Position numbers and translations under genes: made by a program
The notes under the pieces: generated by a model
What the model was told of the DNA's origin: nothing
The model's database searches: none
The model's input: only the letters and a program-made list of their open reading frames with translations
Part shown: positions 4,350 to 44,406 of the stretch, one piece after another
Layout: every line of letters begins with the position of its first letter
Numbering within the stretch: position 1 is the first letter of the stretch
IMG/VR virus record: IMGVR_UViG_3300021408_000010
Span: 1-44,406 of that record
Length of the DNA stretch: 44,406 bases
Reading direction: 5' to 3' (one strand)
From: a virus
Taxonomy: Duplodnaviria; Caudoviricetes

Positions 4350-4703
4350 GTGAGCATCCTAAATAGTACTAAGCAGATCTTGGGGCTAGCCGCCGACTAC
4401 ACCGCGTTCGATCTGGACGTCCTTACGCATATTAACGCCGCTTTCTCCGTTACCAATCAGTTGGGCCTAGGCCCGGAAGAGGGTGTCTTCATTACGGGCG
4501 CTACCGAGGATTGGCCTGAACTAGGTCTTCCTGATAATCAGCTTAACATGATGAAAACCTACGTCTACCTCAAAGTCCGGTCCTTGTTTGATCCTCCGAC
4601 CACCTCCTTTGCCCTCGCGGCCATGGACAATCAAATCAAAGAGCATGAGTGGAGGCTCAACATGCTTCGTGAAGCTGCTCTTCCGCCGGTGGTGATCCCA
4701 TGA
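4350..4703 (+). CDS. head-to-tail adaptor/connector
   Basis: SIL.STK..LG...DYTAFD.D...HIN...YVYLKVR.LFDPP...EWRL pattern; GTG start with GGAG RBS. Confidence 0.65.
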   Translation: MSILNSTKQILGLAADYTAFDLDVLTHINAAFSVTNQLGLGPEEGVFITGATEDWPELGLPDNQLNMMKTYVYLKVRSLFDPPTTSFALAAMDNQIKEHEWRLNMLREAALPPVVIP

Positions 4704-5059
4704 GCGTTGAGGATGCCAGAATCTTTATCGAGCACTATGGTGTTAAGGGAATGAGGTGGGGTAAGCGCGGTGGAGCTTCTAGCACAACCAGGACCACGTT
4801 TTCGAAAGCCCCGAGTAAGCTGAGCACCACTGAGCTGAACAAGCGTATTGCTCGAATGGAGACAGAGAAGAAGTATAATCAACTTAATCGCAAGGACGTT
4901 TCCGAGGGTAAGAAGTTTGCCACCGAAGTCCTTACGGGAGCTGGTCGTAAGGTTGCTACTACGGTGCTTACTGGCGCTAGTTTGGTTGCAATCAAAGCGG
5001 CACTTTCTAGTAAGCTTGGCGAAGGTGTTGCTGCGGAGGCTACTCGACGACTTAAGTAA
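4700..5059 (+). CDS. conserved phage protein with HYGVKGMRWG motif
   Basis: N-terminal IEHYGVKGMRWG; basic helical body. Confidence 0.7.
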   Translation: MSVEDARIFIEHYGVKGMRWGKRGGASSTTRTTFSKAPSKLSTTELNKRIARMETEKKYNQLNRKDVSEGKKFATEVLTGAGRKVATTVLTGASLVAIKAALSSKLGEGVAAEATRRLK

Positions 5060-6838: not shown

Positions 6839-8077
6839 ATGTCTGTAAAAGACCGTTTCAAAAGAGTTTGGAATGCCTTCGTAAGCCCCCAGAACGATCC
6901 CCATACTTCTGATGTTACATATGGGACTACTGCATACTATGGCGGAAGGTCTCCCTCGAGGATGACACTGCGCGTAGGTAATGAACGAACAATCATTACC
7001 TCGATTCTCACCAAGATGGGTGTGGACGCGTCTAGTATTCCGGTTCGGCATGTGAAGGTTGACGATCAAGGTCGTTATCTGTCCGACATGCAAAGCGCGT
7101 TTAATGACTGCTTGACGATCGAGCCTAACCTTGATCAAGCACCGAGAGCGTTCCGTCAAGACATTGCCATGACATTGTTCGAGAAGGGCGTTGCGGCTGT
7201 CGTTGCGGTAGACATGGCGCAGAACCCTAATGACTCTGGGTTTTCGGACATCTATTCCTTGCGCGTGGGAGAAGTTACTGAGTGGTATCCACAGAGAGTC
7301 AAGGTTAATGTTTATAATGAACGACTTGGTAGACGCGAAGAGATAATTCTCGATAAGAGTTATGTGGCTATTATTGAAAACCCACTATACTCTATCATGA
7401 ACGAACAAAACTCTACACTGCAAAGGCTGATTAGGAAGCTAGGTTTCCTAGACGTCATCGATGAGCAGTCCAGTTCTGGTAAGTTGGACATTATCATCCA
7501 GTTGCCGTACGTCATTAAGTCGGAAGCCCGTAAACAACAGGCCGAAGCACGAAGAGAAGACATCGAATTCCAGCTCCGTGGCAGTAAGTACGGAATTGCC
7601 TATACCGATGGCACTGAAAAGATTACTCAGCTTAATAGGCCGGCTGAGAACAATCTTTTGAAGCAGGTGGAATACCTAACCAACATGCTTTATAGTCAGT
7701 TGGGTCTTACTGACGAAATCATGAATGGTTCTGCTGACGAAGAGGCCATGAACAATTACTTTGGGCGCACTATCGAGCCCATCATTGATGCCATCGTAGA
7801 GGGAATGCAACGGGCGTTCCTGGGGATCAATGGAATTAAGTCACGTAAGGAACGTGTCATGGCGTTCCGAGATCCGTTCCGATTTGTCCCGGTCAAGGAC
7901 CTGGCTGAGCTTGCCGATAAACTTACAAGGAATGAGATCGTTACCTCTAACGAGTTCAGAGGCTTCATCGGAATTGCCCCGTCAAATGACCCCAAGGCGG
8001 ACAAACTGATCAACAGCAACATGCCTCAGGCTGAGCCTAGTGAAATGTTGGAAAGGGTACGTCAAAATGGAAGCTGA
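6839..8077 (+). CDS. portal protein
   Basis: 412 aa between terminase and protease/capsid; C-terminal LTRNEIVTSNEFR..G..P typical of HK97-like portals. Confidence 0.88.
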   Translation: MSVKDRFKRVWNAFVSPQNDPHTSDVTYGTTAYYGGRSPSRMTLRVGNERTIITSILTKMGVDASSIPVRHVKVDDQGRYLSDMQSAFNDCLTIEPNLDQAPRAFRQDIAMTLFEKGVAAVVAVDMAQNPNDSGFSDIYSLRVGEVTEWYPQRVKVNVYNERLGRREEIILDKSYVAIIENPLYSIMNEQNSTLQRLIRKLGFLDVIDEQSSSGKLDIIIQLPYVIKSEARKQQAEARREDIEFQLRGSKYGIAYTDGTEKITQLNRPAENNLLKQVEYLTNMLYSQLGLTDEIMNGSADEEAMNNYFGRTIEPIIDAIVEGMQRAFLGINGIKSRKERVMAFRDPFRFVPVKDLAELADKLTRNEIVTSNEFRGFIGIAPSNDPKADKLINSNMPQAEPSEMLERVRQNGS

Positions 8078-10046
8078 CTTCAGCGGTTGGGCCACCAAGG
8101 TTGGGCTCAAGTGCTCCGATGGTCGAACGATCATGGCCGGAGCATTCCGTCAGCAGGACAAGGCGCGTGTTCCGCTTGTCTGGCAGCACGGTCACGGCAA
8201 CCCGGAGAATGTTCTCGGGCATGCCATCCTCGAGGATCGTCCCGAGGGCGTCTGGACTAACGGTTACTTCAACGATTCCCCCGCGGCAAAGCATGCCAAG
8301 GGCCTTCTTCAGCATGGCGACATCAACATGCTTTCCATCTGGGCCAACGAGCTCATGGAACGCGGTAAGAATGTTCTCCATGGCAAGATCCGTGAGGTCA
8401 GTCTGGTCCTTTCGGGAGCCAATCCTGGTGCGATCATCGAGAACGTGACTGCCCGCCACGGCGATGGTATGGAAGAGCTCATCGATGACGAGGCGGTTAT
8501 TTACACCGGTCTCGAATTCGAACACGCCGACAAGAGCGGCGATAAGACCGATAATAGCGATAATTCCGACGCGGATAGCAAGGACGATGACGACACGGTC
8601 GCTGACGTCTACGAGTCCATGTCCGATCAGCAGAAGGACGTCCTTCATTACATGGTCAGTCAGGCCATGGAGAAGGGCAGCAAGTCGGTTTCGTCCGATG
8701 ATAAGTCCTCCGCAGAACACAGCAGCACCGACGCTAACAAGGATAAGGAAGGCAACAACATGACCCGGAACGTGTTCGACAAGGACAAGGGTGACGAGGG
8801 CACGGCTACTCGTACCGTCATTTCGCATGACGACATGAAGAGCATTGTCGCCGATGCGGAGAAGTCCGGGTCGATGAAGAGCGCTATCGAGGCGTACGCT
8901 CTGGCTCACGGTATCACGGAGATCGACACGCTGTTCCCGGAGGCCAAGAACCTCACCGCCGCGCCCGAGTTCTTCGGTCGTCGGACTGAGTGGGTTTCTG
9001 GCGTTCTCACCGGGGCGAAGAAGACTCCGTTTGCTCGGATTCGGACCCATTACGCGGATCTCAACTTCGATGAGGCTCGTGCCAAGGGTTACGTCAAGGG
9101 CGCCTTCAAGAAGGAAGAGTTCTTCGGCGTTGCTGGCCGAACCACCACCCCCAAGACGATCTACAAGAAGCAGAAGCTCGATCGCGACGACATCATCGAC
9201 ATCACCGACTTCGACGTGGTGGCGTGGATGAAGGGCGAGATGCGTCTCATGCTCGACGAGGAGATCGCTCGAGCCATCCTCATCGGTGACGGCCGCGCCG
9301 TGGACGACGAGGACAAGATCAACGAGGACAACATCCGCCCCATTGCCACAGACCACGACCTGTACGCGGTCAAGGTCTATGTCAACCTGGATGATGCTAG
9401 CTCGAGCGCCCAGGAGATCATCGACGCTCTGATCACCCATCGTCAGTACTACCGTGGCGCTGGTCAGCCGACCATGTTCACGACCGAGACCATGATCGCT
9501 CGGTTCATGATGCTCAAGGATACGCTTGGTCGGCGTATCTACCGCTCGCTTGACGAGCTGGCCACGGAGCTCCGCGTCGACAAGATCGTGCCCGTGGAGG
9601 TGTTCGAGAGCGAGCCCACCATCGTTGCTGTCCTTGTCAACATGGGCGACTACGTCATCGGCGCGAACAAGGGTGGCGAGGTCAACCTGTTCGACGACTT
9701 CGACATCGACTACAACCAGTACAAGTACCTGATCGAGACGCGCATTTCTGGCGCCCTCGCCAAGCTGAAGTCGGCCATTGTGGTTCGCTCGGTCGATGGT
9801 GACGATGTTCTTGTCGCCGCCCCGAACGTTCCCACCTTCGTGCCCGCCACCGGTGTTGTGACGATCGTTGCCACTACCGGCGTCGTGTACAAGAATGCCC
9901 TCACCGGTGCTACCCTGTCGACTGGCGCTCAGTCCGCGCTGGCCGAGGGCGCAAGCCTCACGGTTCAGGCTACCCCTGCCACCGGTTACTACCTTACCTC
10001 CAGTGAGAACGAAGAGTGGAAGTTCACTCGCCCTGTTACTCCCTGA
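8067..10046 (+). CDS. prohead protease-scaffold-major capsid fusion with C-terminal Ig-like extension
   Basis: HK97-type protease motifs (DFSGWAT, VPLVWQH, LSI, EVSLV..GANPGA.I), acidic linker, capsid region, T/A/V-rich tail; strong codon bias. Start ATG 8067 after GGAAAGG. Confidence 0.88.
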   Translation: MEADFSGWATKVGLKCSDGRTIMAGAFRQQDKARVPLVWQHGHGNPENVLGHAILEDRPEGVWTNGYFNDSPAAKHAKGLLQHGDINMLSIWANELMERGKNVLHGKIREVSLVLSGANPGAIIENVTARHGDGMEELIDDEAVIYTGLEFEHADKSGDKTDNSDNSDADSKDDDDTVADVYESMSDQQKDVLHYMVSQAMEKGSKSVSSDDKSSAEHSSTDANKDKEGNNMTRNVFDKDKGDEGTATRTVISHDDMKSIVADAEKSGSMKSAIEAYALAHGITEIDTLFPEAKNLTAAPEFFGRRTEWVSGVLTGAKKTPFARIRTHYADLNFDEARAKGYVKGAFKKEEFFGVAGRTTTPKTIYKKQKLDRDDIIDITDFDVVAWMKGEMRLMLDEEIARAILIGDGRAVDDEDKINEDNIRPIATDHDLYAVKVYVNLDDASSSAQEIIDALITHRQYYRGAGQPTMFTTETMIARFMMLKDTLGRRIYRSLDELATELRVDKIVPVEVFESEPTIVAVLVNMGDYVIGANKGGEVNLFDDFDIDYNQYKYLIETRISGALAKLKSAIVVRSVDGDDVLVAAPNVPTFVPATGVVTIVATTGVVYKNALTGATLSTGAQSALAEGASLTVQATPATGYYLTSSENEEWKFTRPVTP

Positions 10047-20479: not shown

Positions 20480-20875
20480 ATGGCTGTAACTCTACGTAAT
20501 AAGACGTATGACAAGCTGAAGCATGTAACTCAAGTGGTCCTGCCCGCGGTTGGCTCTCTATATTTCGGCCTTTCTGCAATCTGGGGACTTCCTGCCGGTG
20601 AAGAGGTGGTTGGTACGCTTGCGCTGCTGACGACTTTCGGTGGTGTTACGCTCCTCGTGAGTACCAAGAACTACAACCCGGATATTCCGGAATCTAATCC
20701 CAACTTTGCTGGGGATTTCATTGTCGACACCACGCCTGAGGGTAAGAAGGTCGTCCAGCTCGCTCTGGCACGCGATCCTCGGGATATTGTCGACAACGAG
20801 GCGCTCGTCTTCAGAGCGGTCGACACCAGCAAGGAAGAGCAGAACGAGCAGTTCTGGGATAATCCCGCGGAATAA
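20480..20875 (+). CDS. holin (Dp-1 family) with soluble C-terminal extension
   Basis: NKTYD.LK...QVVLPA.G.LYF.LS.IWGLP..EEVVGT...FGG..L.VST..YN; two TM segments. Confidence 0.8.
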   Translation: MAVTLRNKTYDKLKHVTQVVLPAVGSLYFGLSAIWGLPAGEEVVGTLALLTTFGGVTLLVSTKNYNPDIPESNPNFAGDFIVDTTPEGKKVVQLALARDPRDIVDNEALVFRAVDTSKEEQNEQFWDNPAE

Positions 20876-20891
20876 ACATCCTCTATAATGA
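20866..20891 (+). promoter_or_regulatory. repeated promoter-like motif, copy 1
   Basis: CGC-GGAATAA-ACA-TCCTC-TATAATGA, upstream of 20913. Confidence 0.75.
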
Positions 20892-21220: not shown

Positions 21221-21278
21221 CGAAAACTCAGAAGCTGTGTGAGATGCAATACAATCCTGCATGGCTTCTGAGTTTTCG
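21221..21278. terminator. long inverted repeat, probable terminator
   Basis: CGAAAACTCAGAAGC (21221-35) / GCTTCTGAGTTTTCG (21264-78), perfect 15 bp, just after the 21197 stop. Confidence 0.65.
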
Positions 21279-21302
21279 CGGGATTTACATCGGATATAAA
21301 AA
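21277..21302 (+). promoter_or_regulatory. degenerate motif copy
   Basis: CGC-GGGATTT-ACA-TCGGA-TATAAAAA; same spacing, last bases differ. Confidence 0.5.
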
Positions 21303-21484
21303 ATTTGCGATTTTCCGAAAAAACACCCCTCTATATGGCTGTATAAGGGCCTCCAGAGGGTATAAATGGGTCATTATACCCGGTAGAGCACGAAACGTCT
21401 TAGAACGCGAAATAGAGCCCTATCCGGCTAAATGGGCATTTCTAATGTAAAAAATACCCGGGGGGAAGGTTTCTGAGAACAATT

Positions 21485-21510
21485 CGCTGTATTTACATGC
21501 CATATAATGA
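21485..21510 (+). promoter_or_regulatory. promoter-like motif, copy 2
   Basis: CGC-TGTATTT-ACA-TGCCA-TATAATGA. Confidence 0.8.
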
Positions 21511-21742: not shown

Positions 21743-21775
21743 AAAGCCTCGACCCCGCCAAGGGGTTTAGGTTTT
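21743..21775 (+). terminator. probable intrinsic terminator
   Basis: AAAGCCT-CG-ACCCC-GCCAA-GGGGT-TT-AGGTTTT hairpin after the stop. Confidence 0.55.
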
Positions 21776-21801
21776 CGCAACATTTACACGCCCTATAATG
21801 A
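21776..21801 (+). promoter_or_regulatory. promoter-like motif, copy 3
   Basis: CGC-AACATTT-ACA-CGCCC-TATAATGA. Confidence 0.8.
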
Positions 21802-24676: not shown

Positions 24677-24677
24677 T

Positions 24678-24703
24678 CGCAGCATTTACACACCCTATAG
24701 TGA
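24678..24703 (+). promoter_or_regulatory. promoter-like motif, copy 4
   Basis: CGC-AGCATTT-ACA-CACCC-TATAGTGA. Confidence 0.75.
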
Positions 24704-28360: not shown

Positions 28361-28371
28361 GAGGGAGGGCC

Positions 28372-34215: not shown

Positions 34216-34607
34216 TGGAGCCAGAGGATACGGGCAAGGAGTCCCGGGAGCCTATCGATTTCGAGGGGTTCTCGACCCAGAAGGACCTGCCCGTTGGCGA
34301 TTTCCGTGAGCGGCCTATTCGGAGCAACCTTGTCGAAGTCACAGTGGCCTGCCCTGAGTGCCATGGTATGAACCGCCGGGCCAAGCGCGCGTGCGATACC
34401 TGCGATGGCGCAGGGGTCGTGAAGAAGGTCGTCACTCAGGACGAGATCACCGGGGAGGACCCGCTCAACTGTGATAAGTGGGGCGAGGTCGACTTCGGTC
34501 TGGGCCCTGTACTAATTCGATGCACACAGTCGGGCGAGCATGACGAGCATGGTTGCACCGTCATCTTTGAGGAGGATGAGGAGGAACCCGATCCTAATCT
34601 GAACTAA
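34212..34607 (+). CDS. Zn-finger protein (DnaJ-type CxxCxG repeats)
   Basis: CPECHG...CDTCDGAG plus a second Cys/His cluster. Confidence 0.6.
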   Translation: MMEPEDTGKESREPIDFEGFSTQKDLPVGDFRERPIRSNLVEVTVACPECHGMNRRAKRACDTCDGAGVVKKVVTQDEITGEDPLNCDKWGEVDFGLGPVLIRCTQSGEHDEHGCTVIFEEDEEEPDPNLN

Positions 34608-34609
34608 TT

Positions 34610-34635
34610 CGCGAAAAAAACACAGGGTATAATGA
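34610..34635 (+). promoter_or_regulatory. promoter-like motif, copy 5
   Basis: CGC-GAAAAAA-ACA-CAGGG-TATAATGA; heads a non-coding structured tract. Confidence 0.8.
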
Positions 34636-34706
34636 AGGAGAGTGTGTATGCTGGCTAACGCCAGAGACGCGCTAGTTCGCGAACGGCATACTCTTCTTCT
34701 CTTTTC
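34634..34706 (+). ncRNA. candidate three-way-junction small RNA
   Basis: 14-bp closing stem GAAGGAGAGTGTGT/GCATACTCTTCTTC enclosing CTGGC-TAAC-GCCAG and CGCG-CTAGTT-CGCG; pyrimidine tract follows. Confidence 0.55.
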
Positions 34707-34722
34707 TGTTTTGGCCGGTGCC

Positions 34723-34850
34723 ACGGACGGCCCCCGGAACAGAAAATTCTTCAGCATGCTAAGAACCTCCGCCAAGGGATTCTTACTGTCTGCGGGAGTG
34801 GACTAACCCACCTGGGTCCGACTCTGTCAGGCCATTCTGAAGCCAACCGT
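34723..34850 (+). ncRNA. candidate multibranch structured RNA
   Basis: ACGG..GGC/GCC..CCGT closing; ACAG/CTGT, TTCTT/AAGAA, GAGTGGAC/GTCCGACTC and TCAGG/TCTGA helices. Confidence 0.45.
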
Positions 34851-34854
34851 TCTT

Positions 34855-34972
34855 GGGGGTATGCAATGGAGCCATTAAGCGCGGAGTCCCAGCAATGCGT
34901 TTAAACTTCTTGGCTGAGTCTGGTGAGCTCGGCATCCAGGAGAGCCGGTATTCGAAGCCGGGTACCCCCACC
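34855..34972 (+). ncRNA. tRNA-like (non-canonical) RNA
   Basis: 8-bp acceptor-like GGGGGTAT/GTACCCCC then ACC; T-arm CCGGT-ATTCGAA-GCCGG; arm TAAGCGC/GCGTTTA with 14-nt loop; long extra arm TTCTTGG/CCAGGAG. Confidence 0.6.
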
Positions 34973-35006
34973 TTTCCCGATCAACCCTTCAACACAAGGA
35001 ATGCTA

Positions 35007-35231
35007 ATGCAGACTCATTTCACTCTTACTTCCCCTGCCGGGCATTTCATCTTTCCGCTGGGGACAGTCCGAAGCAAGGCCAAGGTTGTTCGTGATGCGG
35101 TGACGGCTGGTAGTCGAGGGGCAATCCCTCATACGCCTCGTCCGCGTCCGGACAACGTCATGACCTGGTTCAAGAATCACGTCGCTGGGCCCGTTTCCGG
35201 CGAGATCACTTTCGAGTGGATCAAGGCTTAG
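35007..35231 (+). CDS. hypothetical protein
   Basis: AAGGA RBS; MQTHFTL...; the upstream part of ORF 34923 overlaps the RNA structure. Confidence 0.6.
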   Translation: MQTHFTLTSPAGHFIFPLGTVRSKAKVVRDAVTAGSRGAIPHTPRPRPDNVMTWFKNHVAGPVSGEITFEWIKA

Positions 35232-35243
35232 GAGGCCTACAAA

Positions 35244-35549
35244 GTGCTTAAGTACGAGATCACCTACGCCGCTGGCGAGGGTGCGCCGAAGACCGAGACC
35301 GTGGAATGCGACTTCGTTCAGCCCCCGGTTGAAGACAATGGTTGTCAGATCCAGTTCTACGTCGCGGCCGCATCAGGCCAGGCGGATCGCTTGGTGAAGC
35401 AGGTCAACCCTTCGGCCATCATCAAGATGGACCTTGTCCAGGGCGTCGAAGCCAAGAACGTCTTCGATCAGGTGTTCGATGGAGAGGATCCCTTGGCCGC
35501 GGAAGCGTTCGGCTTCGATGACAAGCGCGAGCAGCTGAGGAGCGAGTGA
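35244..35549 (+). CDS. hypothetical protein
   Basis: AGGAGG RBS, GTG start, strong codon bias. Confidence 0.7.
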   Translation: MLKYEITYAAGEGAPKTETVECDFVQPPVEDNGCQIQFYVAAASGQADRLVKQVNPSAIIKMDLVQGVEAKNVFDQVFDGEDPLAAEAFGFDDKREQLRSE

Positions 35550-35758
35550 TGGGCAAGCACACGACCAACACCGGAACTGGCGCCAAGCGTTCACGTTCGC
35601 GTCGGGATTCTCTCATGCAGCCGAAGCCTGATCAGTCCAAGTACCTGCGCAGGGCGCATGTGCGTCTCGAGAAGCGGCAGGCGGCGTGGGATGCGCTTCC
35701 GCTGGATAAGAAGCAGAAGACCACTCGTCCTGGTTGCATGAAGATGCGAACCAACTGA
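35546..35758 (+). CDS. small basic protein
   Basis: GAGGAG RBS; K/R-rich, 70 aa. Confidence 0.6.
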   Translation: MMGKHTTNTGTGAKRSRSRRDSLMQPKPDQSKYLRRAHVRLEKRQAAWDALPLDKKQKTTRPGCMKMRTN

Positions 35759-35906
35759 TGGGACGGGGACAGGAAGTAGAGATCCGTACACCTGAGGACC
35801 GCCCCTTCCCTTGGCGACCCCAGGACAACGGTCACATCACTGGTACTCCCACTCCGGAGCCGCCTAAGGATGACGGCATCAGTATCTGGCCGCGATAGGA
35901 GTCCGC

Positions 35907-36116
35907 GTGATTGTTATCGATCTAATCTGGTGGGCGGTGTGGGAGATCACCAAAGCGATTGGTTGGGTTGGGTGGATGATCATTGTTGTTATCCTGAACA
36001 TCATCGTGGGTATCATCAACCTCACCTTCTCGGTCATCTTCTCGCTTATGGGGTTGGACAAGAAGTCCGGCACACTCAAGGGCGTCAAGACCACGGCAAA
36101 AGGTAAGCGAAAGTAA
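35907..36116 (+). CDS. small membrane protein
   Basis: AGGAG RBS, GTG start; long hydrophobic segment and basic tail. Confidence 0.6.
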   Translation: MIVIDLIWWAVWEITKAIGWVGWMIIVVILNIIVGIINLTFSVIFSLMGLDKKSGTLKGVKTTAKGKRK

Positions 36117-36120
36117 GTCT

Positions 36121-36990
36121 AGGATGCTACCTGGCACGCTTATAGTTAGCTAAGGTACTGGCTGGTAACAAAGTCAGCCCATCCTTTGATCGTCCCCTTG
36201 CTTACGGCAAAGCGCTGGCTCTCGTTGAGGCGCGCCTGAGTGGCCTGATCAGTCACAAATAGCGAGAGTTATGTCGGTTCGAGTCCGGCCGAGGGGAACT
36301 TTGTTAGTGGGGACAGCGTGGGTCCGCCTCTTAAATGAGGGCGAAGCGTTTCGTCAGAGAAGAATGCCAGCGAGGCTCAAGGTTGTTAGTCAACACGGCG
36401 CTACACCCGTCGAAATGTGTCAACAATCTAGCAGCGTCCGGGGATAGCCCTTCGAGGTTAGCCTCAGTGGAGGTAAAGGCCCGGATTAACCTGTCAAGCA
36501 TGGAGATAGCTAGGCATTGCAGCGATTACCCACTACCTCGTCTGAGCGAGGCTAAATAGTTTTTAGGCTCAGAGCGTCAGGTGCTAGAGGCGAGGGCTCC
36601 ACATCGAGCGAGTCCCTTGTAGTTCTACAGTCTGTATCCAGTACCACGGACATAAAAACGTCGGCAGTGGCTTAAGGACGTCAGACCACCTGGGTAAGCG
36701 GAGAAGGTACTCCGAAACTCTCATGCGCATAGCGCTGCACGTGTGAGAGAGGGACAAAAAACCGGCATCGTTCATGATCTTAACTGGGCCTCTGGTCGAG
36801 TTAAGGGAAGAGGGGTTAAGACCGTTCCAATCTTAGCTTCCTTGTTATGGGTGGAATCCATAACGCGATGTGTCAGGTATGCAGGTTCTTCTATAGTTGA
36901 GAGATTAAATGTAGGGAGTTAAACCTCAGCCTGCACGCCATCACCTCGGGGAGGGTCGGTCGAGTCCGCCGAACTTGGCCTGCCCTCCCC
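36121..36990 (+). ncRNA. large ornate non-coding RNA or tandem ncRNA array (~870 nt)
   Basis: No credible gene; back-to-back closed domains with many G-U pairs on the + strand (details in findings). Confidence 0.65.
36193..36300 (+). ncRNA. tRNA-like element with canonical T-arm
   Basis: TCCCCTTG/CGAGGGGA acceptor-like stem; GTCGG-TTCGAGT-CCGGC T-arm; 12-bp helix TGGCTCTCGTTG/TAGCGAGAGTTA in place of the anticodon arm; no CCA. Confidence 0.65.
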
Positions 36991-37021
36991 TACCTAAGGT
37001 CTCCAACAGAAGAGAGTAAAC

Positions 37022-37381
37022 ATGAAGCGAATCATGCGGCTGGTTGCTGCTGTGGCTATCGTGGTCGGCCTGTTCGGGGCGGTCGCGGTTGTGGAGGTTG
37101 CTGATGCACCTCCCGCCAGCGCGCACAACCAGGACAACTACTCGTACTGGTACTGCTCGGCCCATCGGTCGAACGTCAACATGACCGTGATCCACTCCAA
37201 GGTCTACGGCCTGTGGCCCGGTCAGATCGGCTACTACTGCCGCGAGGACTTCTTCGGCGTCAGCTTCCAGTACTGGGTGATCGTTCAGCCCCCGGGCAGC
37301 AACTTCAGCTACATGCCTTGGGGCCGGCAGAAGTGCAACCCTGGCGGGATCGTCTGGTGCGAGGAGCCTGGTCCCTGGTGA
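37022..37381 (+). CDS. secreted Cys/aromatic-rich protein
   Basis: Sec signal MKRIMRLVAAVAIVVGLFGAV...PPASA; four Cys; many Y/W. Confidence 0.75.
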   Translation: MKRIMRLVAAVAIVVGLFGAVAVVEVADAPPASAHNQDNYSYWYCSAHRSNVNMTVIHSKVYGLWPGQIGYYCREDFFGVSFQYWVIVQPPGSNFSYMPWGRQKCNPGGIVWCEEPGPW

Positions 37382-37392
37382 CCTGAGTAAAA

Positions 37393-37424
37393 GAGAAGGC
37401 CCTTTAACCGGGGCTTTCTTTTTG
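37393..37424 (+). terminator. intrinsic terminator
   Basis: AGAAGGCCTT-TAACC-GGGGCTTTCT-TTTT. Confidence 0.75.
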
Positions 37425-37447
37425 CGTTAACATAGAGGAGACTTATC

Positions 37448-37768
37448 ATGCAACTAGCCGAGTTCTGCAAGAAGACAGGTGCGAGTCCTAAGCAAATTCA
37501 CTATTGGAACCGTGTCGGGATTGTCATGACGCGTAGTCGTTGGATCGGTCGTAACGATCGCTTCCGCGACTACGACGAGACCTTGATCCCTAAGGTTCAT
37601 CTGCTGGTGACCATCTCGTGGAAGATGGGTGGATGGTTCTCGGTGGATACACTGCTAGCGATCTGGGAGAACTACGAAGAGGAGAAGCTCGACCTTGGGG
37701 ACGGAGTAATCTTGGAATGGAGAACTAATGCTCGAGTTGATGTCGCATCAGAAAGATGCACTCGATAA
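37448..37768 (+). CDS. MerR-like HTH protein
   Basis: LAEFCKKTGASPKQIHYW...R...FRDYD; GAGGAG RBS. Confidence 0.65.
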   Translation: MQLAEFCKKTGASPKQIHYWNRVGIVMTRSRWIGRNDRFRDYDETLIPKVHLLVTISWKMGGWFSVDTLLAIWENYEEEKLDLGDGVILEWRTNARVDVASERCTR

Positions 37769-38927
37769 TCTGGATAATGGTAGAATCCTTTACGGGGGTG
37801 TTGGGAGTGGTAAGTCGGCTACGGCCATGGCTTACTACATGAAGCGGGAGAACCCAAAGGACATCTATGTCATCACCACAGCAAAGAAGAGAGATAGCCT
37901 TGAGTGGCTCGGAGAAGCTGCTCATTTCGGAATTGGAACGTCGACAGATAGCACGGTTGGTGGCGTGCTTAGGATTGATTCGTGGAACAACATTGGAAGC
38001 TACCTCGATATTGAAGGAGCTTTCTTCATCTTTGACGAACAAAGACTTGTCGGACATGGCGCTTGGGTTAAGTCATTCCTCCGAATTGCTGCGCGAAACA
38101 AGTGGATTATGCTTAGTGCAACTCCTGGAGATGCGTGGCTTGATTACGCGCCAGTCTTCATAGCCAACGGTTGGTACAAGAACATGACCGAGTTCAAGCG
38201 TCGTCATGTGATCTACGCGCCTTACATCAAGTTCCCTAAGATCATTGGGTATATTGGGGAGGATGTGTTAGATCGCTATCGTAATGAGATCTTGGTTGAG
38301 ATGCCATACCTCAAACACACCGAGCGTATGGTGAACTACCTTGAGGTGGGATACGACAAGGCGCTTGTGAAGAAGCTACAAGTAGAGAGATGGAACCATG
38401 TGGAGAATCGTCCTATCAAAGATGTTGCGGAGCTGTGGCGCCTTACTCGTATGGTTGTCAACAGTCATGGATCGCGCTGCAATACGATTCGCGGACTACT
38501 CAAATTCCACCAGAGATTGATAGTCTTCTACAACTTCGATTATGAGTTGGAGATACTGAGAGAGTTGGGAGATCGGCATGAAGTGTTTGAGTGGAACGGT
38601 CATAAGCACGACGAGGTTCCTACTTCGGACAGCTGGGTATATCTTGTGCAGTATACTGCTGGGTCTGAAGGCTGGAATTGCATAAGCACTGACGCTATGG
38701 CCTTCTATTCGCTCACATATTCGTACAAAAACTTTGCCCAAGCGCAAGGACGAATCGACAGATTGAACTCCCCATACACGGTTTTGTACTACTACGCGCT
38801 CCAAAGTGGGGCCTATATCGACTCGGCACTTAGGTTAGTACTTGCCGGGAAGAAATCCTTTAATGAGCGGGTTGGGCTTCAAGAATGGGAGAAAAGTGGG
38901 TTTTCTGGCACTTATCCGGCACTTTAA
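37728..38927 (+). CDS. SF2 DNA helicase
   Basis: L..HQ, GGVGSGKS, FDEQ, LSATP, GSEGWN, QAQGRIDR. Confidence 0.88.
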   Translation: MLELMSHQKDALDNLDNGRILYGGVGSGKSATAMAYYMKRENPKDIYVITTAKKRDSLEWLGEAAHFGIGTSTDSTVGGVLRIDSWNNIGSYLDIEGAFFIFDEQRLVGHGAWVKSFLRIAARNKWIMLSATPGDAWLDYAPVFIANGWYKNMTEFKRRHVIYAPYIKFPKIIGYIGEDVLDRYRNEILVEMPYLKHTERMVNYLEVGYDKALVKKLQVERWNHVENRPIKDVAELWRLTRMVVNSHGSRCNTIRGLLKFHQRLIVFYNFDYELEILRELGDRHEVFEWNGHKHDEVPTSDSWVYLVQYTAGSEGWNCISTDAMAFYSLTYSYKNFAQAQGRIDRLNSPYTVLYYYALQSGAYIDSALRLVLAGKKSFNERVGLQEWEKSGFSGTYPAL

Positions 38928-39140
38928 ATAAAAGTGCCGGGGGGTTTGCCGGTGATGTGCCGGGCTCTGACCTGGGGAAATAAGCTTTTTTGTACATATA
39001 GGCATTTATATACCTCTTAAAGTATATAGAAAAATAGGTTGTATATAGATTGTTACATATTACGTATAGTTCATATACAAGGTGAGTTTTCATAGAAAAG
39101 TTTTTATGGGGGTAAAAAGCGCCTAAGTGCCGGGAAGGGG
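38905..39140. other. candidate replication origin
   Basis: Inverted repeat CCGGCACTTT/AAAGTGCCGG, repeated GTGCCGGG, and a strongly AT-rich TATA-rich intergenic core. Confidence 0.45.
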
Positions 39141-39145
39141 TAAAA

Positions 39146-39640
39146 ATGGCCGATAATGAGTTTCACGGGATACTTGAGGAGTTCCCTAGCTATACCATTA
39201 GCAACTATGGCACTGTGACTAATTCATACGGACAGATCATGACACACTCTCGCACCGCGCACGGAGAACACACGGTTGGGTTAATGAGGAACGGCCGTCA
39301 GTATCGACGTTCGGTCAAGGTTCTTGTCGCCCGCGCTTTCGTAGACGGAGAGACAGAGATCTTCGACACACCCATTCTTCTAGACGGTGACCGAGGAAAT
39401 CTCCACACAAGTAATCTTGCTTGGCGCCCGCGTTGGTTCGCCCTTGCTTATCAGAAACAGTTCGATCAAATAGAAGATTGGTGGTATGCCGGTCCTGTGG
39501 TTGATGACGCCCAAGGCATAACATACGAAGATATCTTCTCTGCGGCTATGGAAACCGGCAGCTTGGTAAGACATATAAGGTTGGGGATGTTGAATCGAGA
39601 AAGAGTATTCCCAACGGGCGCACTCTTTAGATTTAGTTGA
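39146..39640 (+). CDS. NUMOD4/HNH-like protein, probably degenerate nuclease
   Basis: Y.ISNYG.V, V.L...G......V..LVA.AF, DGDR.N....NL.W; usual catalytic His residues not evident. Confidence 0.65.
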   Translation: MADNEFHGILEEFPSYTISNYGTVTNSYGQIMTHSRTAHGEHTVGLMRNGRQYRRSVKVLVARAFVDGETEIFDTPILLDGDRGNLHTSNLAWRPRWFALAYQKQFDQIEDWWYAGPVVDDAQGITYEDIFSAAMETGSLVRHIRLGMLNRERVFPTGALFRFS

Positions 39641-39653
39641 TAATATACAACCA

Positions 39654-39679
39654 CGCGCCTCGTACATGTTGTATAATGA
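39654..39679 (+). promoter_or_regulatory. promoter-like motif, copy 6
   Basis: CGC-GCCTCGT-ACA-TGTTG-TATAATGA. Confidence 0.75.
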
Positions 39680-39718
39680 AGGGAGAGTGTAAATTCCTTC
39701 CGAGCGGGGAACCGTACA

Positions 39719-40054
39719 ATGCATTTCATTTTCGCAGCCATCCCTCCTGAAGAAGTGATGTATGGATACGGTCCTCTTGGCGTCATAGTTGTGGCTTTGG
39801 GTTACTTTGCGTACAAGATGTTCAACATCGTTTTGCGCGATAGAGACAAAGCCATCTCCGACCGCGATGCCATGATCCAGGATGTGTTCACCAAGGTACT
39901 TCCTGCCATTGTTAGAAACTCCGAATTCCTGGAGAGTAGGCAAGAGGTAGACCGGGAACTTGTTCAGGCTCTGAAAGATAACAACAAAGTTTTTGATGAA
40001 GTCTTATTTGTCCTCAAACACGGCGGCGACAATCATCGTGTCGGAGGTCGATGA
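39719..40054 (+). CDS. membrane protein (single TM plus coiled coil)
   Basis: YGPLGVIVVALGYFAY TM segment; downstream of motif copy 6. Confidence 0.65.
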   Translation: MHFIFAAIPPEEVMYGYGPLGVIVVALGYFAYKMFNIVLRDRDKAISDRDAMIQDVFTKVLPAIVRNSEFLESRQEVDRELVQALKDNNKVFDEVLFVLKHGGDNHRVGGR

Positions 40055-40215
40055 TGCCTCTTAGAAGTCGGAATCAAAAAGAATCAGACCGAAAAGTTAG
40101 GCTAGCTCGCACGCAAGTCGAGGAAGCGGTCAGCAGGCTAACGGGCTTACTGGACATTGTGGAGGAACAAGCCACGGAAGCTAAGGAGCACTTGGATGAA
40201 CGACGAACTGGCTGA
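40051..40215 (+). CDS. small coiled-coil protein (54 aa, not in ORF track)
   Basis: GGAGG RBS; ATGA overlap; MMPLRSRNQKESDRKVRLARTQVEEAVSRL... Confidence 0.55.
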   Translation: MMPLRSRNQKESDRKVRLARTQVEEAVSRLTGLLDIVEEQATEAKEHLDERRTG

Positions 40216-40579
40216 GAAACTTCTTACGGAGCTCGTTGAGACTCGTAAGTCGTTTACTACAGCAACAGAGTCGTTTAACACGGCAACGGCACAGATCAAA
40301 TGGAATCGTATTAACACAGTTATTCAGTATGTTCTGATCGCGGTAGTAGCGATCATGCTGGGCTTGGGTGTGACCTATTACATGGATGAAAAGCAAGCCG
40401 CATGTGAACGGGGTAATGACCTCCGCGTGCAAATTGCTTTGTCGCTGGATTTCAATGCTACCGCCATTGGCGCAGCGTTGGCTGTGGTTTCGGGTGCTTC
40501 CCCTGAGACGTTCGATGATTATATGGATGTCTATGAGAATCAGGAAAAGCCCCCTATCTTGGAACTGAGGGAATGCTGA
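40196..40579 (+). CDS. membrane protein
   Basis: AAGGAG RBS before MNDELAE; central TM segment YVLIAVVAIMLGLGVTYY; CERGN...C. Confidence 0.65.
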   Translation: MNDELAEKLLTELVETRKSFTTATESFNTATAQIKWNRINTVIQYVLIAVVAIMLGLGVTYYMDEKQAACERGNDLRVQIALSLDFNATAIGAALAVVSGASPETFDDYMDVYENQEKPPILELREC

Positions 40580-40875
40580 TGCGAGAATCTATATATCAGT
40601 TAGATCTCATTAAGCGCCTCAGAGATCGCTTTCCTGGTTGTGTGATCCTGAAGAACGACCCGTCTTTCATACAGGGTATCCCCGATCTGATCATCCTTTA
40701 TGGGGATAAGTGGGCCATGCTCGAGGTCAAGCCAAGAGCTTCTGCGCCTACTCGTCCTAACCAGCCGTATTTCGTTGAGAAGTTCAATGAGATGTCCTTC
40801 GCGGCGTTCATTAATCCGGATAATGAGGAGGAAGTTCTAGATGCGCTTCAATCGTCATTCGGATCTCCAGGGTAG
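40573..40875 (+). CDS. VRR-NUC domain nuclease
   Basis: E......I...GIPDL.......WAMLEVK......PNQ. Confidence 0.85.
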   Translation: MLMRESIYQLDLIKRLRDRFPGCVILKNDPSFIQGIPDLIILYGDKWAMLEVKPRASAPTRPNQPYFVEKFNEMSFAAFINPDNEEEVLDALQSSFGSPG

Positions 40876-41401
40876 GCACGCGTTTCTAAGCCCTAGTAGT
40901 TACCACTGGCTTAATTATACAGACCAGAAACTTGAGGCTCGGTATGCATCGCACCAATCAGCTCGTAGAGGGACTGATCTTCACGCCCTCGCCCACGAAG
41001 CAATTCGACTTGGTGTTCAGTTGTCAAGAGCGAACAAATCGATGTCCACATATGTTAAAGACGCTCTCGGATACAAGATGCAGTGTGAGCAACCGCTGTA
41101 TTACTCCGACAATTGTTTCGGTTGCGCAGACACAATTTCATTCCGACGTGGTAAACTCCGAATCCATGATCTCAAGACGGGTATCGTAGCCACATCCTTC
41201 AGTCAGCTCGAGATCTATGCATCTATATTCTGTTTGGAATATAGCATCGATCCAGCGCCCATCGAGATAGAGCTTCGTATCTATCAACGGGAAGAGGTTA
41301 AAATTCACATTCCTCATGTCGAGGCGATAATGGAGATCATGGACAAGATTGTTATATTTGATCAGCAAGTAGAAGAACTTAAAGCTTCCGATCGATACTA
41401 G
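40841..41401 (+). CDS. PD-(D/E)xK (Cas4/RecB-like) nuclease
   Basis: HAFLSPS, RGT.LH, FG.AD.I, IHDLKTG, QL.IYA. Confidence 0.8.
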   Translation: MRFNRHSDLQGRHAFLSPSSYHWLNYTDQKLEARYASHQSARRGTDLHALAHEAIRLGVQLSRANKSMSTYVKDALGYKMQCEQPLYYSDNCFGCADTISFRRGKLRIHDLKTGIVATSFSQLEIYASIFCLEYSIDPAPIEIELRIYQREEVKIHIPHVEAIMEIMDKIVIFDQQVEELKASDRY

Positions 41402-41407
41402 GGGGTA

Positions 41408-44059
41408 GTGCTCGTGATAATCGAAGAAGGAGACCTACTCCATTTTGGTATTCTTCGTCGGTCAGGCAGGTATCCGTGGGGCTCTGGTAAGACAGAGAAC
41501 ATTCGAAATAAGCAATTCCTTGATTACGTGGCAGATCTGAAGAGCAAGGGCTTGACTGAATCTCAGATCGCTCAAGGATTCGATGTGTCAGTGTCGGAGC
41601 TCCGCGCTACCAGATCCATCGCCAGGAACGAACAGCGTCAATCCGATATCGCTATGGCTCAGCGGTTGAAAGACAAGGGCTATTCCAACGTTGCGATTGG
41701 CGAACGCATGGGTAAGAATGAATCGACCGTAAGGTCTCTCCTTGCTCCTGGGGCCAAGGATAAGTCCGACATCCTTCAGAGTACGGCGGACATGCTCAAG
41801 GCTGAAGTAGCAGAGAAGGGCTACATCGACGTCGGCACAGGCACCGAAAGCTATATTAATGTTGCTGGTCGTAACGGTGTCTCTGCCACGCGCTTGGCAA
41901 CGGCCGTATCTATGCTGCGTGAGGAAGGCTATGAATACCACACTGTCAAGTTCACGCAGGTCGGCACAGGCCTCGAGACAACAGTCAAGGTCCTTGCTCC
42001 CCCAGGAACTACTCAGAAGGATGTGTTCCTCAACCGCGATAAGATTCGACTCATTGGAAGCTTCTCTGAGGATGGTGGACGATCCTACGGAAAGGCCTTG
42101 GATCCTATCAGCATCAGTGCGAAGCGGCTCGACATCAAGTACAAAGAAGATGGTGGAGACCAAGCAGACGGTGTAGTCTTTGTTCGACCAGGGGTAAAAG
42201 ACGTCTCTCTTGGTGGGGCAAAGTATGCACAGGTCCGCGTGAAGGTTGGTGGCAAGCACTACATCAAGGGCATGGCCCTGTACAAGGATGACCTCCCTGA
42301 TGGTGTAGATCTTCAATTCAACACCAACAAGTCAGACACCGGTAATAAGCTTGATGCACTGAAGAAGTTGGATCTAGAGAATCCAGACCTTCCTTTCGGA
42401 ACCATTGTTCGTCAGATTGGCGATAACATGGGAACACCGAAGAGTAAGGTTACCTCTGCCATGAACATTGTTTATGAAGAGGGTAACTGGGAGCAATGGA
42501 GCAAGACGCTTTCTTCACAGATGCTGTCCAAGCAAAGTCCTGCGCTAATCAGATCTCAGCTTGATCTGACTCTGGATCAGCGTACTTCTCAGTACAACGA
42601 AATCAAATCACTGACTAACCCGGTGGTTCGTAAGCGTTTGCTCGAGGACTTCGCTGCAGGTACCGATTCTGCATCCATTCAACTTAAGGCTGCCGCGCTA
42701 CCACAACAGGCAACACACGTAATCCTTCCGATCTCCAAGATCGAACCTACTCAAATCTATGCACCTAATTATGCCAATGGTGCTAGAGTCGTATTGATTC
42801 GTCACCCTCATGGTGGTCCTTTTGAAATCCCAGAACTCGTCGTCAACAACCGGAACCCAGAAGGAAGAAAGCTTCTCGGAAATTCTCGTGATGCTATTGG
42901 CATTCATCATAGCGTTGCAGAGCGTCTGTCTGGCGCTGATTTTGATGGAGACACAGTACTCGTTATCCCTAATAATCAAAGACGAGTTCGGTCTGACCCT
43001 GCCCTGGCTGACCTAAAGGGGTTTGATCCTAGGTCTTCGTATCCTGGCTATGAGGGTATGAAGAAGATGACGAATACTCAGACAGAGATGGGTAAGGTTT
43101 CTAACCTTATCACGGACATGTCTCTTCGTCAGGCCCCTCCTTCTGAGCTTGCCCGTGCAGTTAAGCATTCGATGGTTGTCATTGATGCAGAGAAGCATGG
43201 GTTGAACTACAAGCAATCCTATAATGATAACGGTATCAAGCAGCTGAAAGAGAAGTACCAAAAGGGTGGTGCTTCTACTCTAATCTCTAGGGCTAAGTCA
43301 AGAACCGATGTCCCAGAGAGAAAGCCTCGTACTGTTGGTAAGGGTGGCCCTGTTGATAAGGAGACTGGTGAGCTTAGGTTTGAGCCCACCAATCGTGTTA
43401 ACTTCAGGTCAGGCACACCCATAACCACTCGTAGTACCAAGCTAGCAGAGACAAAGGATGCGCATACCCTATCATCAGGTACCCCTGTTGAGCGCATCTA
43501 TGCGGACCATTCTAACAAGCTCAAGGCCATGGCCAACCAGGCTAGGCTAGATGCTTTAAGAACCCCCACTCCTCGCCAGTCACCCTCTGCTAGAAGCACG
43601 TACTCTGCACAAGTAGCTTCGCTCAATGCAAAGCTGGCCATCGCTGTTCGAAACCGCCCCCTCGAAAGGCAAGCCCAGCTCATAGCCAATGCCGTAGTGA
43701 AGGCCAAGAGAGATTACAATCCTAACATGGAACGTGAGACTCTCAAGAAGATAAAGTTCCAGGCCCTCACTGAAGCGCGCATTCGTACTGGTGCTGGCAA
43801 GCAGAAAATCAAGATAGATCCCACAGAATGGGAAGCTATCCAAGCTAACGCCATTAGTTCCTCGAAGCTTAATGACATTCTAAACAACGCCGACATGGAC
43901 GCAGTGCGAGACCTGGCTACCCCTAAGGAAGCCAAGCTAATGAATCCCTCCAAGACTAGTAGAGCTAAGTCAATGCTTGCATCTGGGTACACCAGGTCTG
44001 AGGTTGCGTCTGCTCTTGGTGTGTCTCTTAGTACCCTCGATACTGCAACTGTGAGCTAA
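41408..44059 (+). CDS. single-subunit two-barrel RNA polymerase (RNAi-RdRP/YonO-like) with HTH domains
   Basis: Ordered motifs ADG, AQVR..IKG, LIRHP, LSGADFDGD (DFDGD at 42938-42952), MGKVSN, HSMVVIDAEKHG; two N-terminal and one C-terminal HTH-like segments. Confidence 0.8.
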   Translation: MLVIIEEGDLLHFGILRRSGRYPWGSGKTENIRNKQFLDYVADLKSKGLTESQIAQGFDVSVSELRATRSIARNEQRQSDIAMAQRLKDKGYSNVAIGERMGKNESTVRSLLAPGAKDKSDILQSTADMLKAEVAEKGYIDVGTGTESYINVAGRNGVSATRLATAVSMLREEGYEYHTVKFTQVGTGLETTVKVLAPPGTTQKDVFLNRDKIRLIGSFSEDGGRSYGKALDPISISAKRLDIKYKEDGGDQADGVVFVRPGVKDVSLGGAKYAQVRVKVGGKHYIKGMALYKDDLPDGVDLQFNTNKSDTGNKLDALKKLDLENPDLPFGTIVRQIGDNMGTPKSKVTSAMNIVYEEGNWEQWSKTLSSQMLSKQSPALIRSQLDLTLDQRTSQYNEIKSLTNPVVRKRLLEDFAAGTDSASIQLKAAALPQQATHVILPISKIEPTQIYAPNYANGARVVLIRHPHGGPFEIPELVVNNRNPEGRKLLGNSRDAIGIHHSVAERLSGADFDGDTVLVIPNNQRRVRSDPALADLKGFDPRSSYPGYEGMKKMTNTQTEMGKVSNLITDMSLRQAPPSELARAVKHSMVVIDAEKHGLNYKQSYNDNGIKQLKEKYQKGGASTLISRAKSRTDVPERKPRTVGKGGPVDKETGELRFEPTNRVNFRSGTPITTRSTKLAETKDAHTLSSGTPVERIYADHSNKLKAMANQARLDALRTPTPRQSPSARSTYSAQVASLNAKLAIAVRNRPLERQAQLIANAVVKAKRDYNPNMERETLKKIKFQALTEARIRTGAGKQKIKIDPTEWEAIQANAISSSKLNDILNNADMDAVRDLATPKEAKLMNPSKTSRAKSMLASGYTRSEVASALGVSLSTLDTATVS

Positions 44060-44074
44060 CAAGAAAGGATCAAG

Positions 44075-44317
44075 GTGCAACGTTCAAGGCTAACTACAGT
44101 TGATAATCCTTTCGATCCTTTCGATGATTATGATGCCTGGTACACATTCGACGTGTCGTTTGGATACCATACCGCATCGTTCTTAGCTCGCATTGTCCGT
44201 GACTCAGACCAACTATCTGATGCTGATCAAGAACTTGCTAATGAATTAGCTATTGATGAGATAGTTAAAGAGAATGTCTTAGGTGTTTATCGAAAAGTTT
44301 CGAGAGACATTTCTTAG
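44075..44317 (+). CDS. conserved hypothetical protein
   Basis: LTTVDNPFDPF....W..FD...GY.T...LAR; GAAAGGA RBS, GTG start. Confidence 0.75.
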   Translation: MQRSRLTTVDNPFDPFDDYDAWYTFDVSFGYHTASFLARIVRDSDQLSDADQELANELAIDEIVKENVLGVYRKVSRDIS

Positions 44318-44406
44318 TTCGTGAGTGGACACGACGGTTCGTCGGGGTCCCTTTCCTTCTTTAAAAGGGGGAGGGGGGTCTCGCGAATCGTACCCCCCCT
44401 ATGCAT

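Follow-up and report, generated by a model that had tools for sequence, protein, structure and literature searches.

Described relatives and identity of the locus

Among the closest described systems for the gene analysed here are single-chain, two-barrel RNA polymerases encoded by phages. YonO of the Bacillus phage SPbeta is strictly DNA-dependent and prefers DNA; it transcribes late genes only, and its promoter and factor requirements are left open in the accessible text (PMC5467207). The Thermus phage P23-45 has both a virion and a non-virion two-barrel polymerase with separate repeated promoters; P23-45 gp64 and P74-26 gp62 are the non-virion enzymes, while gp96 is the virion polymerase fused to the tape measure (accessible portions of bioRxiv 10.1101/2022.12.01.518664). 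In the accessible part of PMC2919709 (2010), phage 1706 represents one of five YonO-like families, with SPbeta listed as a separate family. For the 1706 family, an HHpred match to RNA-dependent RNA polymerase (RdRP; 95.68%), a DxDGD motif and helix-turn-helix (HTH) domains at both ends were described in 2021, and RNA polymerase activity was proposed (excerpts of bioRxiv 10.1101/842583). The RdRP label is still repeated in one 2024 and one 2026 phage paper, as far as their accessible text goes. The stretch examined here, referred to as the window, is the 44,406-nucleotide IMG/VR virus record IMGVR_UViG_3300021408_000010, and the gene in question is the following:

41414..44059, plus strand, gene for a single-chain RNA polymerase of the two-barrel type (PHROG 4291 / phage 1706 ORF75 family); 881 aa, 96.5 kDa, pI 9.6

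With the window polymerase, which comes from an uncultured phage, a further member is added to a family whose prediction dates from 2010. The novelty implied by an earlier note on this DNA did not hold, as the family, its DxDGD motif, the RdRP match and the terminal HTHs can all be found in the accessible text of PMC2919709 and bioRxiv 10.1101/842583; the family prediction is old, and the finding itself is therefore unsurprising to a specialist. The match to PHROG 4291 reaches 1235 bits and pairs residues 5-880 with positions 7-904 of the 909-position profile. By tblastn, orthologues are present in 250 of 50,697 GenBank phage records, 249 of them across at least 80% of the polymerase length, mostly in phages of Arthrobacter, Gordonia, Streptomyces and Lactococcus, and 888 proteins or clusters at 50% identity match the polymerase with an E value below 1e-30. 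Among the 40 orthologues listed, 24 are labelled as HTH protein, nine as hypothetical, five as RNA-dependent RNA polymerase and two otherwise, in agreement with the suspicion in the earlier note that such a gene could be mis-annotated as an HTH protein. The window as a whole is a 44-kb siphophage genome of the PHROG 4291 group with a gene order like that of Streptomyces phage Bilo, and the block conserved at the right genome end of this group (helicase, nuclease, exonuclease, polymerase and a small conserved gene) is present in it. In the literature searched, whose coverage leaves out most subscription papers, no biochemical test of the PHROG 4291 family was found. A peptide-pattern scan of genome contigs, an approach that detects close relatives only, gave 33 matches, none of them confirmed. 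An NCgl1702-like identity was rejected, NCgl1702 being a beta::beta'-like protein of 2169 aa.

The open reading frame (ORF) extends over 41408-44059 on the plus strand, 883 codons counted from a GTG. A second GTG at 41414 is the more likely start, because it is 8 nt away from the purine run at 41400-41405, whereas the GTG at 41408 is only 2 nt away, and because the database copy of the protein has 881 aa. In a six-frame search, DxDGD occurs in two frames of the window, while the ordered motif series is present in the polymerase frame only; all seven core motifs quoted in the earlier note were recovered there in the order given. Only one two-barrel polymerase was detected in the window.

Catalytic residues and predicted fold

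42104..43567, plus strand, two-barrel catalytic core (residues 231-718), delimited by VIA-align and residue conservation

Residue conservation was assessed in 150 aligned relatives, mostly 43-55% identical to the window polymerase and six of them at 64-76%, using the numbering of the 881-aa protein. Fourteen positions are unchanged in every relative: Q273, R275, K285, G286, R463, P465, D509, D511, G512, D513, G560, N564, D591 and K594. D252 is kept in 148, with Glu in the other two. The earlier note had staked its reading on conservation of the DFDGD motif (coding position 42938-42952) in homologs, and its three aspartates are among the invariant residues. The accessible part of PMC2919709 lists eight residues that are invariant among two-barrel polymerases (D; R/K; K; R-x-P; DxDxD), and all eight are present here, with D252, R275 and K285 in the first barrel and R463, P465 and D509-F-D511-G-D513 in the second. 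The same text gives Rpb1 K332, G750 and K752 and Rpb2 R1020 as switch-2 and funnel residues of the canonical DNA-dependent two-barrel RNA polymerases.

An AlphaFold model built on an 80-sequence alignment has a mean predicted local distance difference test (pLDDT) score of 85.9 and a predicted template modelling score of 0.75. Foldseek returned 27 matches at E values of at most 0.001, and the rows shown are all two-barrel polymerases, the best being QDE-1 (E value 2.4e-9), RDR2, P74-26 gp62 (E value 6.6e-7), gp64 and gp96; the search for similar folds was limited to this ranking. Using VIA-align, the model superimposes on RDR2 with a Z score of 18.1 and a root-mean-square deviation (rmsd) of 3.8 Å across 347 residues, all within 231-718, and the Z scores are 17.5 for QDE-1, 13.6 for gp64 and about 9.5 for the largest subunits of cellular enzymes. 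Window residues were equated with those of QDE-1 by motif pattern and aligned range and not by residue-level superposition. The modelled polymerase has the double-psi two-barrel fold, and conservation and model together place it in the two-barrel RNA polymerase superfamily. The class assignment of the earlier note (double-psi-barrel, QDE-1/RDR type) thus stands on motif conservation, Foldseek and VIA-align alike, and the AlphaFold and Foldseek comparison with QDE-1 that it proposed does match the barrels.

Searches by sequence gave less. The PDB yielded no useful match to the polymerase protein, and a profile of the 150 sequences matched only HTH and helical-repeat chains there, plus the tape-measure chain 8h2n (P23-45 gp96) with an E value of 0.5. 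The Pfam RdRP family PF05183 scored 15.9 bits, below its cut-off of 23.8 (E value 0.0055, residues 502-601 only), and no NCBIfam family scored above its cut-off.

Flanking DNA-binding modules

41552..41605, plus strand, HTH 1 (residues 47-64); model helices 49-55 and 60-87, weak PHROG match (E value 2e-4)
41681..41743, plus strand, HTH 2, sigma-region-4-like (residues 90-110); Pfam Sigma70_r4_2 with an E value of 9e-5, below the cut-off
41822..41998, plus strand, likely winged-helix-like module (residues 137-195); strand-helix-helix-beta-hairpin pattern in the model
43988..44038, plus strand, C-terminal HTH (residues 859-875); Pfam HTH_23 and HTH_7 above the cut-off

The three HTH-like segments reported in the earlier note were all located, in the same order, and the AlphaFold model has HTH geometry at residues 49-87, 92-110 and 861-879. 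HTH 1 is present in all 150 relatives and the C-terminal HTH in 149; within HTH 2, E103 is kept in 134 and R107 in 140. The C-terminal segment is the best stretch of the HTH_23 match, which scores 29.8 bits across two stretches against a cut-off of 24.6. From the model, residues 137-195 are likely to form a fourth, winged-helix-like module which the earlier note did not include.

Three proteins of about 1800 aa, each from a single contig (P0147, P0152 and P0272), have the polymerase core as their C-terminal part and lack the leader motif described below; one of them starts with a portal domain (E value 3e-29), and two carry phrog_8314. Two apparent fusions of polymerase and tape measure (P0273 and P0274), each from one contig and with both parts truncated, are probably chimeras of assembly and were disregarded.

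A promoter-like motif in the non-structural half

20865..20891, plus strand, motif copy 1, YCGC-N7-ACA-N5-TATAATGA
21276..21300, plus strand, degenerate motif copy (TATAAA)
21484..21510, plus strand, motif copy 2
21775..21801, plus strand, motif copy 3
24677..24703, plus strand, motif copy 4 (TATAGT variant)
34609..34635, plus strand, motif copy 5, with a short hairpin and U-run behind it
39653..39679, plus strand, motif copy 6 (one mismatch), heading the series of genes whose last members are nuclease, exonuclease and polymerase

A repeat family in the window resolves to YCGC-N7-ACA-N5-TATA(A/G)TGA, or TCGC-N15-TATAAT(GA) in summary form. Six copies occur with at most one mismatch, while none of 100 shuffles has more than one, and all six are on the coding strand in the non-structural half, in the region that separates the holin from the polymerase operon. 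Several lie 29-35 nt upstream of a start codon with a ribosome-binding site. A profile was built from 299 sites, its fixed positions being fixed by construction. It finds seven sites in the window, six in Bilo, ten in phage 1706 (5.6-55.6 kb scanned), nine in Circum (8.4-58.4 kb scanned) and six in a saliva phage, all 38 of them on the plus (coding) strand, against shuffle means of 0-0.75. The motif thus recurs in Streptomyces, Arthrobacter, Lactococcus and human-saliva phages, and its TCGC and ACA blocks do not shift in register between phages from two host phyla. TATAAT is followed by G in 92% of the 299 sites, which have no -35-like consensus at 17 bp. Canonical sigma-70 sites in the window are at chance level (17 found, 17.5 expected), as are weak canonical sites such as TTCACA-16-GATAAT at 41304 (8 found, 5.3 +/- 2.3 expected). 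No public RNA run is listed for the region 34500-44400, which says nothing about its expression either way.

When a quarter of IMG/VR was scanned for the exact pattern, 145 stretches with the motif were obtained. Other genes of the PHROG 4291 phage group were found near it in 63 of the 76 loci of at least 5 kb, and in 68 of all 140 loci examined. Co-occurrence with the polymerase was assessed on contigs of at least 40 kb, 30 of the 33 listed being examined: the polymerase is encoded on 28 of the 30, including every one of the 19 with a completeness of 90% or more, and completeness is 69% and 78% for the two that lack it. Judged by this distribution, the motif is private to this phage group.

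Directly behind motif copy 5, a stem-loop with a U-run (34634-34705, plus strand) is a candidate small RNA or attenuator, with z of about -2.2 to -2.9 relative to mononucleotide shuffles. In locus L003 the two inner hairpins are kept and the outer stem differs in sequence yet pairs; in L005 the hairpin is shorter.

The acidic leader and its possible role in packaging

4700..5059, plus strand, DUF7211 (PF23847) protein just before the terminase; a true member with an acidic [LI]-x-H-Y-G start
8040..10046, plus strand, fusion of prohead protease (S78) and major capsid protein whose linker has several hydrophobic-x-His sites; candidate leader-processing enzyme
41414..41488, plus strand, acidic leader of the polymerase ending in L-x-H, then a conserved G-x3-4-SGRYPWGSG; candidate capsid-loading or protease-cut tag

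The polymerase begins with an acidic leader. His10 is kept in 147 of the 150 relatives, with Leu (109) or Ile (27) two residues earlier; the leader is net-negative in 120 of them, as against 32% of internal windows, and the polymerase outside it is net-positive in 142. Residues 12-27 of the model have low pLDDT. On the plus strand of the window, the acidic L-x-H leader pattern is found only in the polymerase and in the DUF7211 gene before the terminase, and Leu or Ile occupies the same place in all 40 distinct contexts of the DUF7211 type. The DUF7211 model gives weak matches (E values 3e-4 to 0.02) at the polymerase N-termini of six of 20 genomes. In phage 1706, the positional counterpart of the 4700-5059 gene is orf7, which is of the DUF7211 type, has two such motifs and carries the RefSeq label 'structural protein'.

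The linker His sites of the capsid fusion suggest a His-specific prohead protease, and, taken together with the resemblance of the leaders, they suggest that the polymerase may be packaged and trimmed. The relative fused to a portal domain, a one-contig record lacking both the leader and the terminal HTHs, may hint in the same direction.

The last linker His site lies just before the likely start of the mature capsid protein, both in the window (8040-10046) and in phage 1706 (L023, 1374-3434). Within the head module, a stand-alone ORF at 392-865 (plus strand) has two HxT motifs and looks 2H phosphoesterase-like by eye, with no PHROG match at 1e-5; in P0129 and P0135 a 2H domain is fused before the polymerase leader.

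The 80-aa neighbour and the right genome end

44075..44317, plus strand, conserved gene for an acidic 80-aa protein (PHROG 4303), next after the polymerase; possible accessory factor
44367..44406, plus strand, right-end element (G-run, TCGC, N15, TATGCAT, then the cohesive end, cos); possibly a late promoter spanning the cos junction, or a packaging signal

The 80-aa gene was found in 250 phage records of GenBank, and its counts per genus equal those of the polymerase. Among the loci examined, 34 distinct versions of it stand directly behind the polymerase, loci without it not being counted, and its product is net-negative in 32 of 32. The model of the protein has a pLDDT of 94.2, with no Foldseek match in the PDB at an E value of at most 0.001 on the same kind of ranking. 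A likeness to DUF7720 is a lead only, because the Atlas matches scored below 0.9. A complex prediction for polymerase residues 29-881 with the 80-aa protein gave a score of 0.11 and a mark of 0.32, without folded controls, and weighs neither way.

The order G-run, (T)CGC, A-rich spacer, C-run, TGCAT and cos was found in 26 distinct genome ends; a further 18 loci at polymerase ends, many of them with incomplete ends, showed no such element. The distance from CGC to the final heptamer is 15 nt in 13 of the 26 and 14-17 nt in 21, and in ten both CGC and AC are in the register of the internal motif. The element may serve as a late promoter, directed at the structural operon after the ends have joined, or may simply be a terminase site.

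The window ends (1-40 and 44367-44406) have the appearance of an end-to-end genome minus the 8-9-nt cos overhang of relatives; the completeness estimate of CheckV is 74%.

Proposed mechanism and alternative explanations

We favour a model, at roughly even confidence, in which a DNA-dependent and probably packaged polymerase uses its HTHs to read the motif. Judging from YonO and P23-45 gp64 as analogues, the enzyme would very probably polymerise nucleoside triphosphates (NTPs) on DNA, and it is somewhat more likely than not to be the reader of the motif. It may, with the scales about level, be packaged, trimmed after the His by the prohead protease and injected, so as to start early transcription including that of its own gene. 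Later the structural operon might be transcribed from the cos-adjacent motif variant as promoter, a step we consider rather doubtful, and the 80-aa acidic neighbour might help late transcription, which is unlikely. Sigma-independent reading of its own promoters, from a candidate motif that contains a host-type TATAAT, is plausible.

Several observations weigh against parts of this model. Whole-chain TM-scores are low (0.27-0.35), so the structural likeness is limited to the core. Two long relatives align only from about residue 112 to 840, have no leader motif and keep the core without the terminal HTHs, which are therefore not universal. The DUF7211 matches on polymerases cover about 8-12 residues (the first half of a 25-position hidden Markov model) and score far below the cut-off, and the window's own polymerase has no match to that model. 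The TATAATG core is also the preference of host sigma-A, a near-perfect -10 element. Other core genes of the phage group travel with the motif as well, and with shared ancestry as a confounder the co-occurrence cannot single out the polymerase as its reader. In phage 1706 no profile site lies directly upstream of ORF75, and the record does not label ORF75 as structural.

The lack of a structural label on ORF75 fits a YonO-like late polymerase, an explanation we hold possible, if tentatively. Here host sigma-A would read the TATAAT motif early and in the middle of infection, perhaps with a phage activator at TCGC replacing the -35 box, and the phage enzyme, made during infection, would transcribe the structural operon only, from the cos-adjacent element. 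In T4 middle promoters an activator likewise stands in place of the -35 box. TATAAT followed by G fits the host -10 consensus, YonO itself is late-specific, and no internal motif copy lies in the structural half of the window, into which the conserved end element points. However, nothing resembling a -35 consensus is found at 17 bp in the 299-site profile, the TCGC and ACA blocks keep their exact register across two host phyla, an activator would be needed before any motif-driven gene is expressed, and the conserved acidic L-x-H leader is left unexplained. The same fold and motif evidence would also suit a DNA-dependent, motif-reading enzyme that is not packaged, the host polymerase making the first copy and the leader being used otherwise, e.g., as a structural peptide. 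The structurally related P23-45 gp64 is not a virion enzyme and has promoters of its own, and SGRYPWGSG after the His is conserved beyond what a simple tag would need; we nevertheless judge this improbable, given that the leader's charge and [LI]-x-H-x-G pattern match the DUF7211 proteins and the capsid linker, and that weak canonical sites such as that at 41304 are within chance.

Two further explanations concern the activity itself. A true RNA-dependent RNA polymerase, as in the PHROG and RefSeq label, or a primer-making enzyme would agree with RDR2 and QDE-1 as the closest solved folds and with the weak Pfam RdRP match, but that match is below its cut-off, YonO prefers DNA, and the protein has several DNA-binding HTHs and belongs to a double-stranded DNA genome with its own primase-polymerase; this is very improbable. 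That most GenBank labels read HTH protein would be in keeping with a catalytically dead relic retained for DNA binding only, which is scarcely credible with the catalytic Asp triad, Arg and Lys invariant in all 150 relatives.

In its boldest form, which we regard as speculative and on balance doubtful, the favoured model describes a self-sufficient 96-kDa polymerase with HTH modules for sigma-like promoter reading, loaded into the head via a His-cleaved leader and injected with the DNA. One private promoter would serve phages of Actinobacteria and Firmicutes, and a promoter variant would turn on the late genes only once the cos ends close. If true, such an injected enzyme would allow host-independent transcription and would help to explain a lineage spanning two phyla. 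The gene is in any case a textbook mis-annotation, as HTH protein or RNA-dependent RNA polymerase, across 250 GenBank phages. Its value lies in testability, as candidates for the promoter, the reading domains and the packaging tag come together with cultured lytic phages that grow on laboratory hosts. How single-chain two-barrel enzymes find promoters, left open for YonO in the accessible text of PMC5467207, is directly testable in this phage group; a positive outcome would provide an orthogonal, minimal transcription system of the two-barrel type and a model for recognising promoters without sigma. The motif, the leader and the right-end element are not seen in the accessible portions of the published family accounts (PMC2919709; bioRxiv 10.1101/842583), and the literature searched, within the coverage given above, yielded nothing on the motif, the leader tag or virion proteomics.

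Other features of the window

28357-32115, plus strand, 1252-aa helicase/primase-family-B-polymerase fusion (PHROG 4210), typical of the phage group
36218-36297, plus strand, tRNA-Ile (GAT) gene
36536-36595, plus strand, Pistol ribozyme (41.7 bits; gathering score 34.5)
38930-39145, AT-rich gap between the helicase and HNH genes with flanking GTGCCGG repeats; candidate replication origin by eye

Comparison with known systems

QDE-1 and RDR2 are the best structural matches of the core, with Z scores of 17-18 over about 350 residues and an rmsd of 3.7-4.6 Å. The window polymerase differs from them in its other flanking domains, in a sequence identity of only 12-16% and in falling below the Pfam RdRP cut-off. 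The virion RNA polymerase of the crAss-like phage phi14:2 (gp66) belongs to the same superfamily. The window polymerase matches a structural-protein model of phi14:2 only weakly (E value 0.028), and no solved phi14:2 chain is among the PDB rows listed from the structural comparison. Motifs shared with the phi14:2 enzyme are cited in the accessible text of bioRxiv 10.1101/842583.

Thermus P23-45 gp64 and P74-26 gp62 resemble the window polymerase in the two-barrel fold (E value 6.6e-7, Z scores 13.5-13.6) and in being accompanied by phage-specific repeated promoter motifs, which are a candidate in the window. The identity is 14-16%, the solved chains have about 590 aa as against 881, and the Thermus phage has two enzymes where one was detected in the window. 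YonO of SPbeta is, like the window polymerase, a phage-encoded single chain of about 100 kDa with an aspartate triad, and both are counted as YonO-like in the accessible part of PMC2919709. Unlike the window polymerase, YonO is biochemically proven and late-specific; it forms a separate family among the five and is compared here by description only. Bacillus is not among the ten named organism groups of the 250 tblastn matches, two more groups lying beyond these.

The window polymerase is a full-length match to phage 1706 ORF75, to the proteins termed HTH domain protein or putative RNA polymerase in actinophage clusters AM, AU, AW, BI, CC, DJ and EL, and to that of Faecalibacterium phage FP_oengus, with 57.5% identity to gp57 of Streptomyces phage Bilo and 41.5% to phage 1706. 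It shares with Bilo and Circum a position near the right genome end, after the nuclease and exonuclease genes, and with the 1706 ORF75 family the HTHs at both ends and the DxDGD motif, there being no categorical difference between them.

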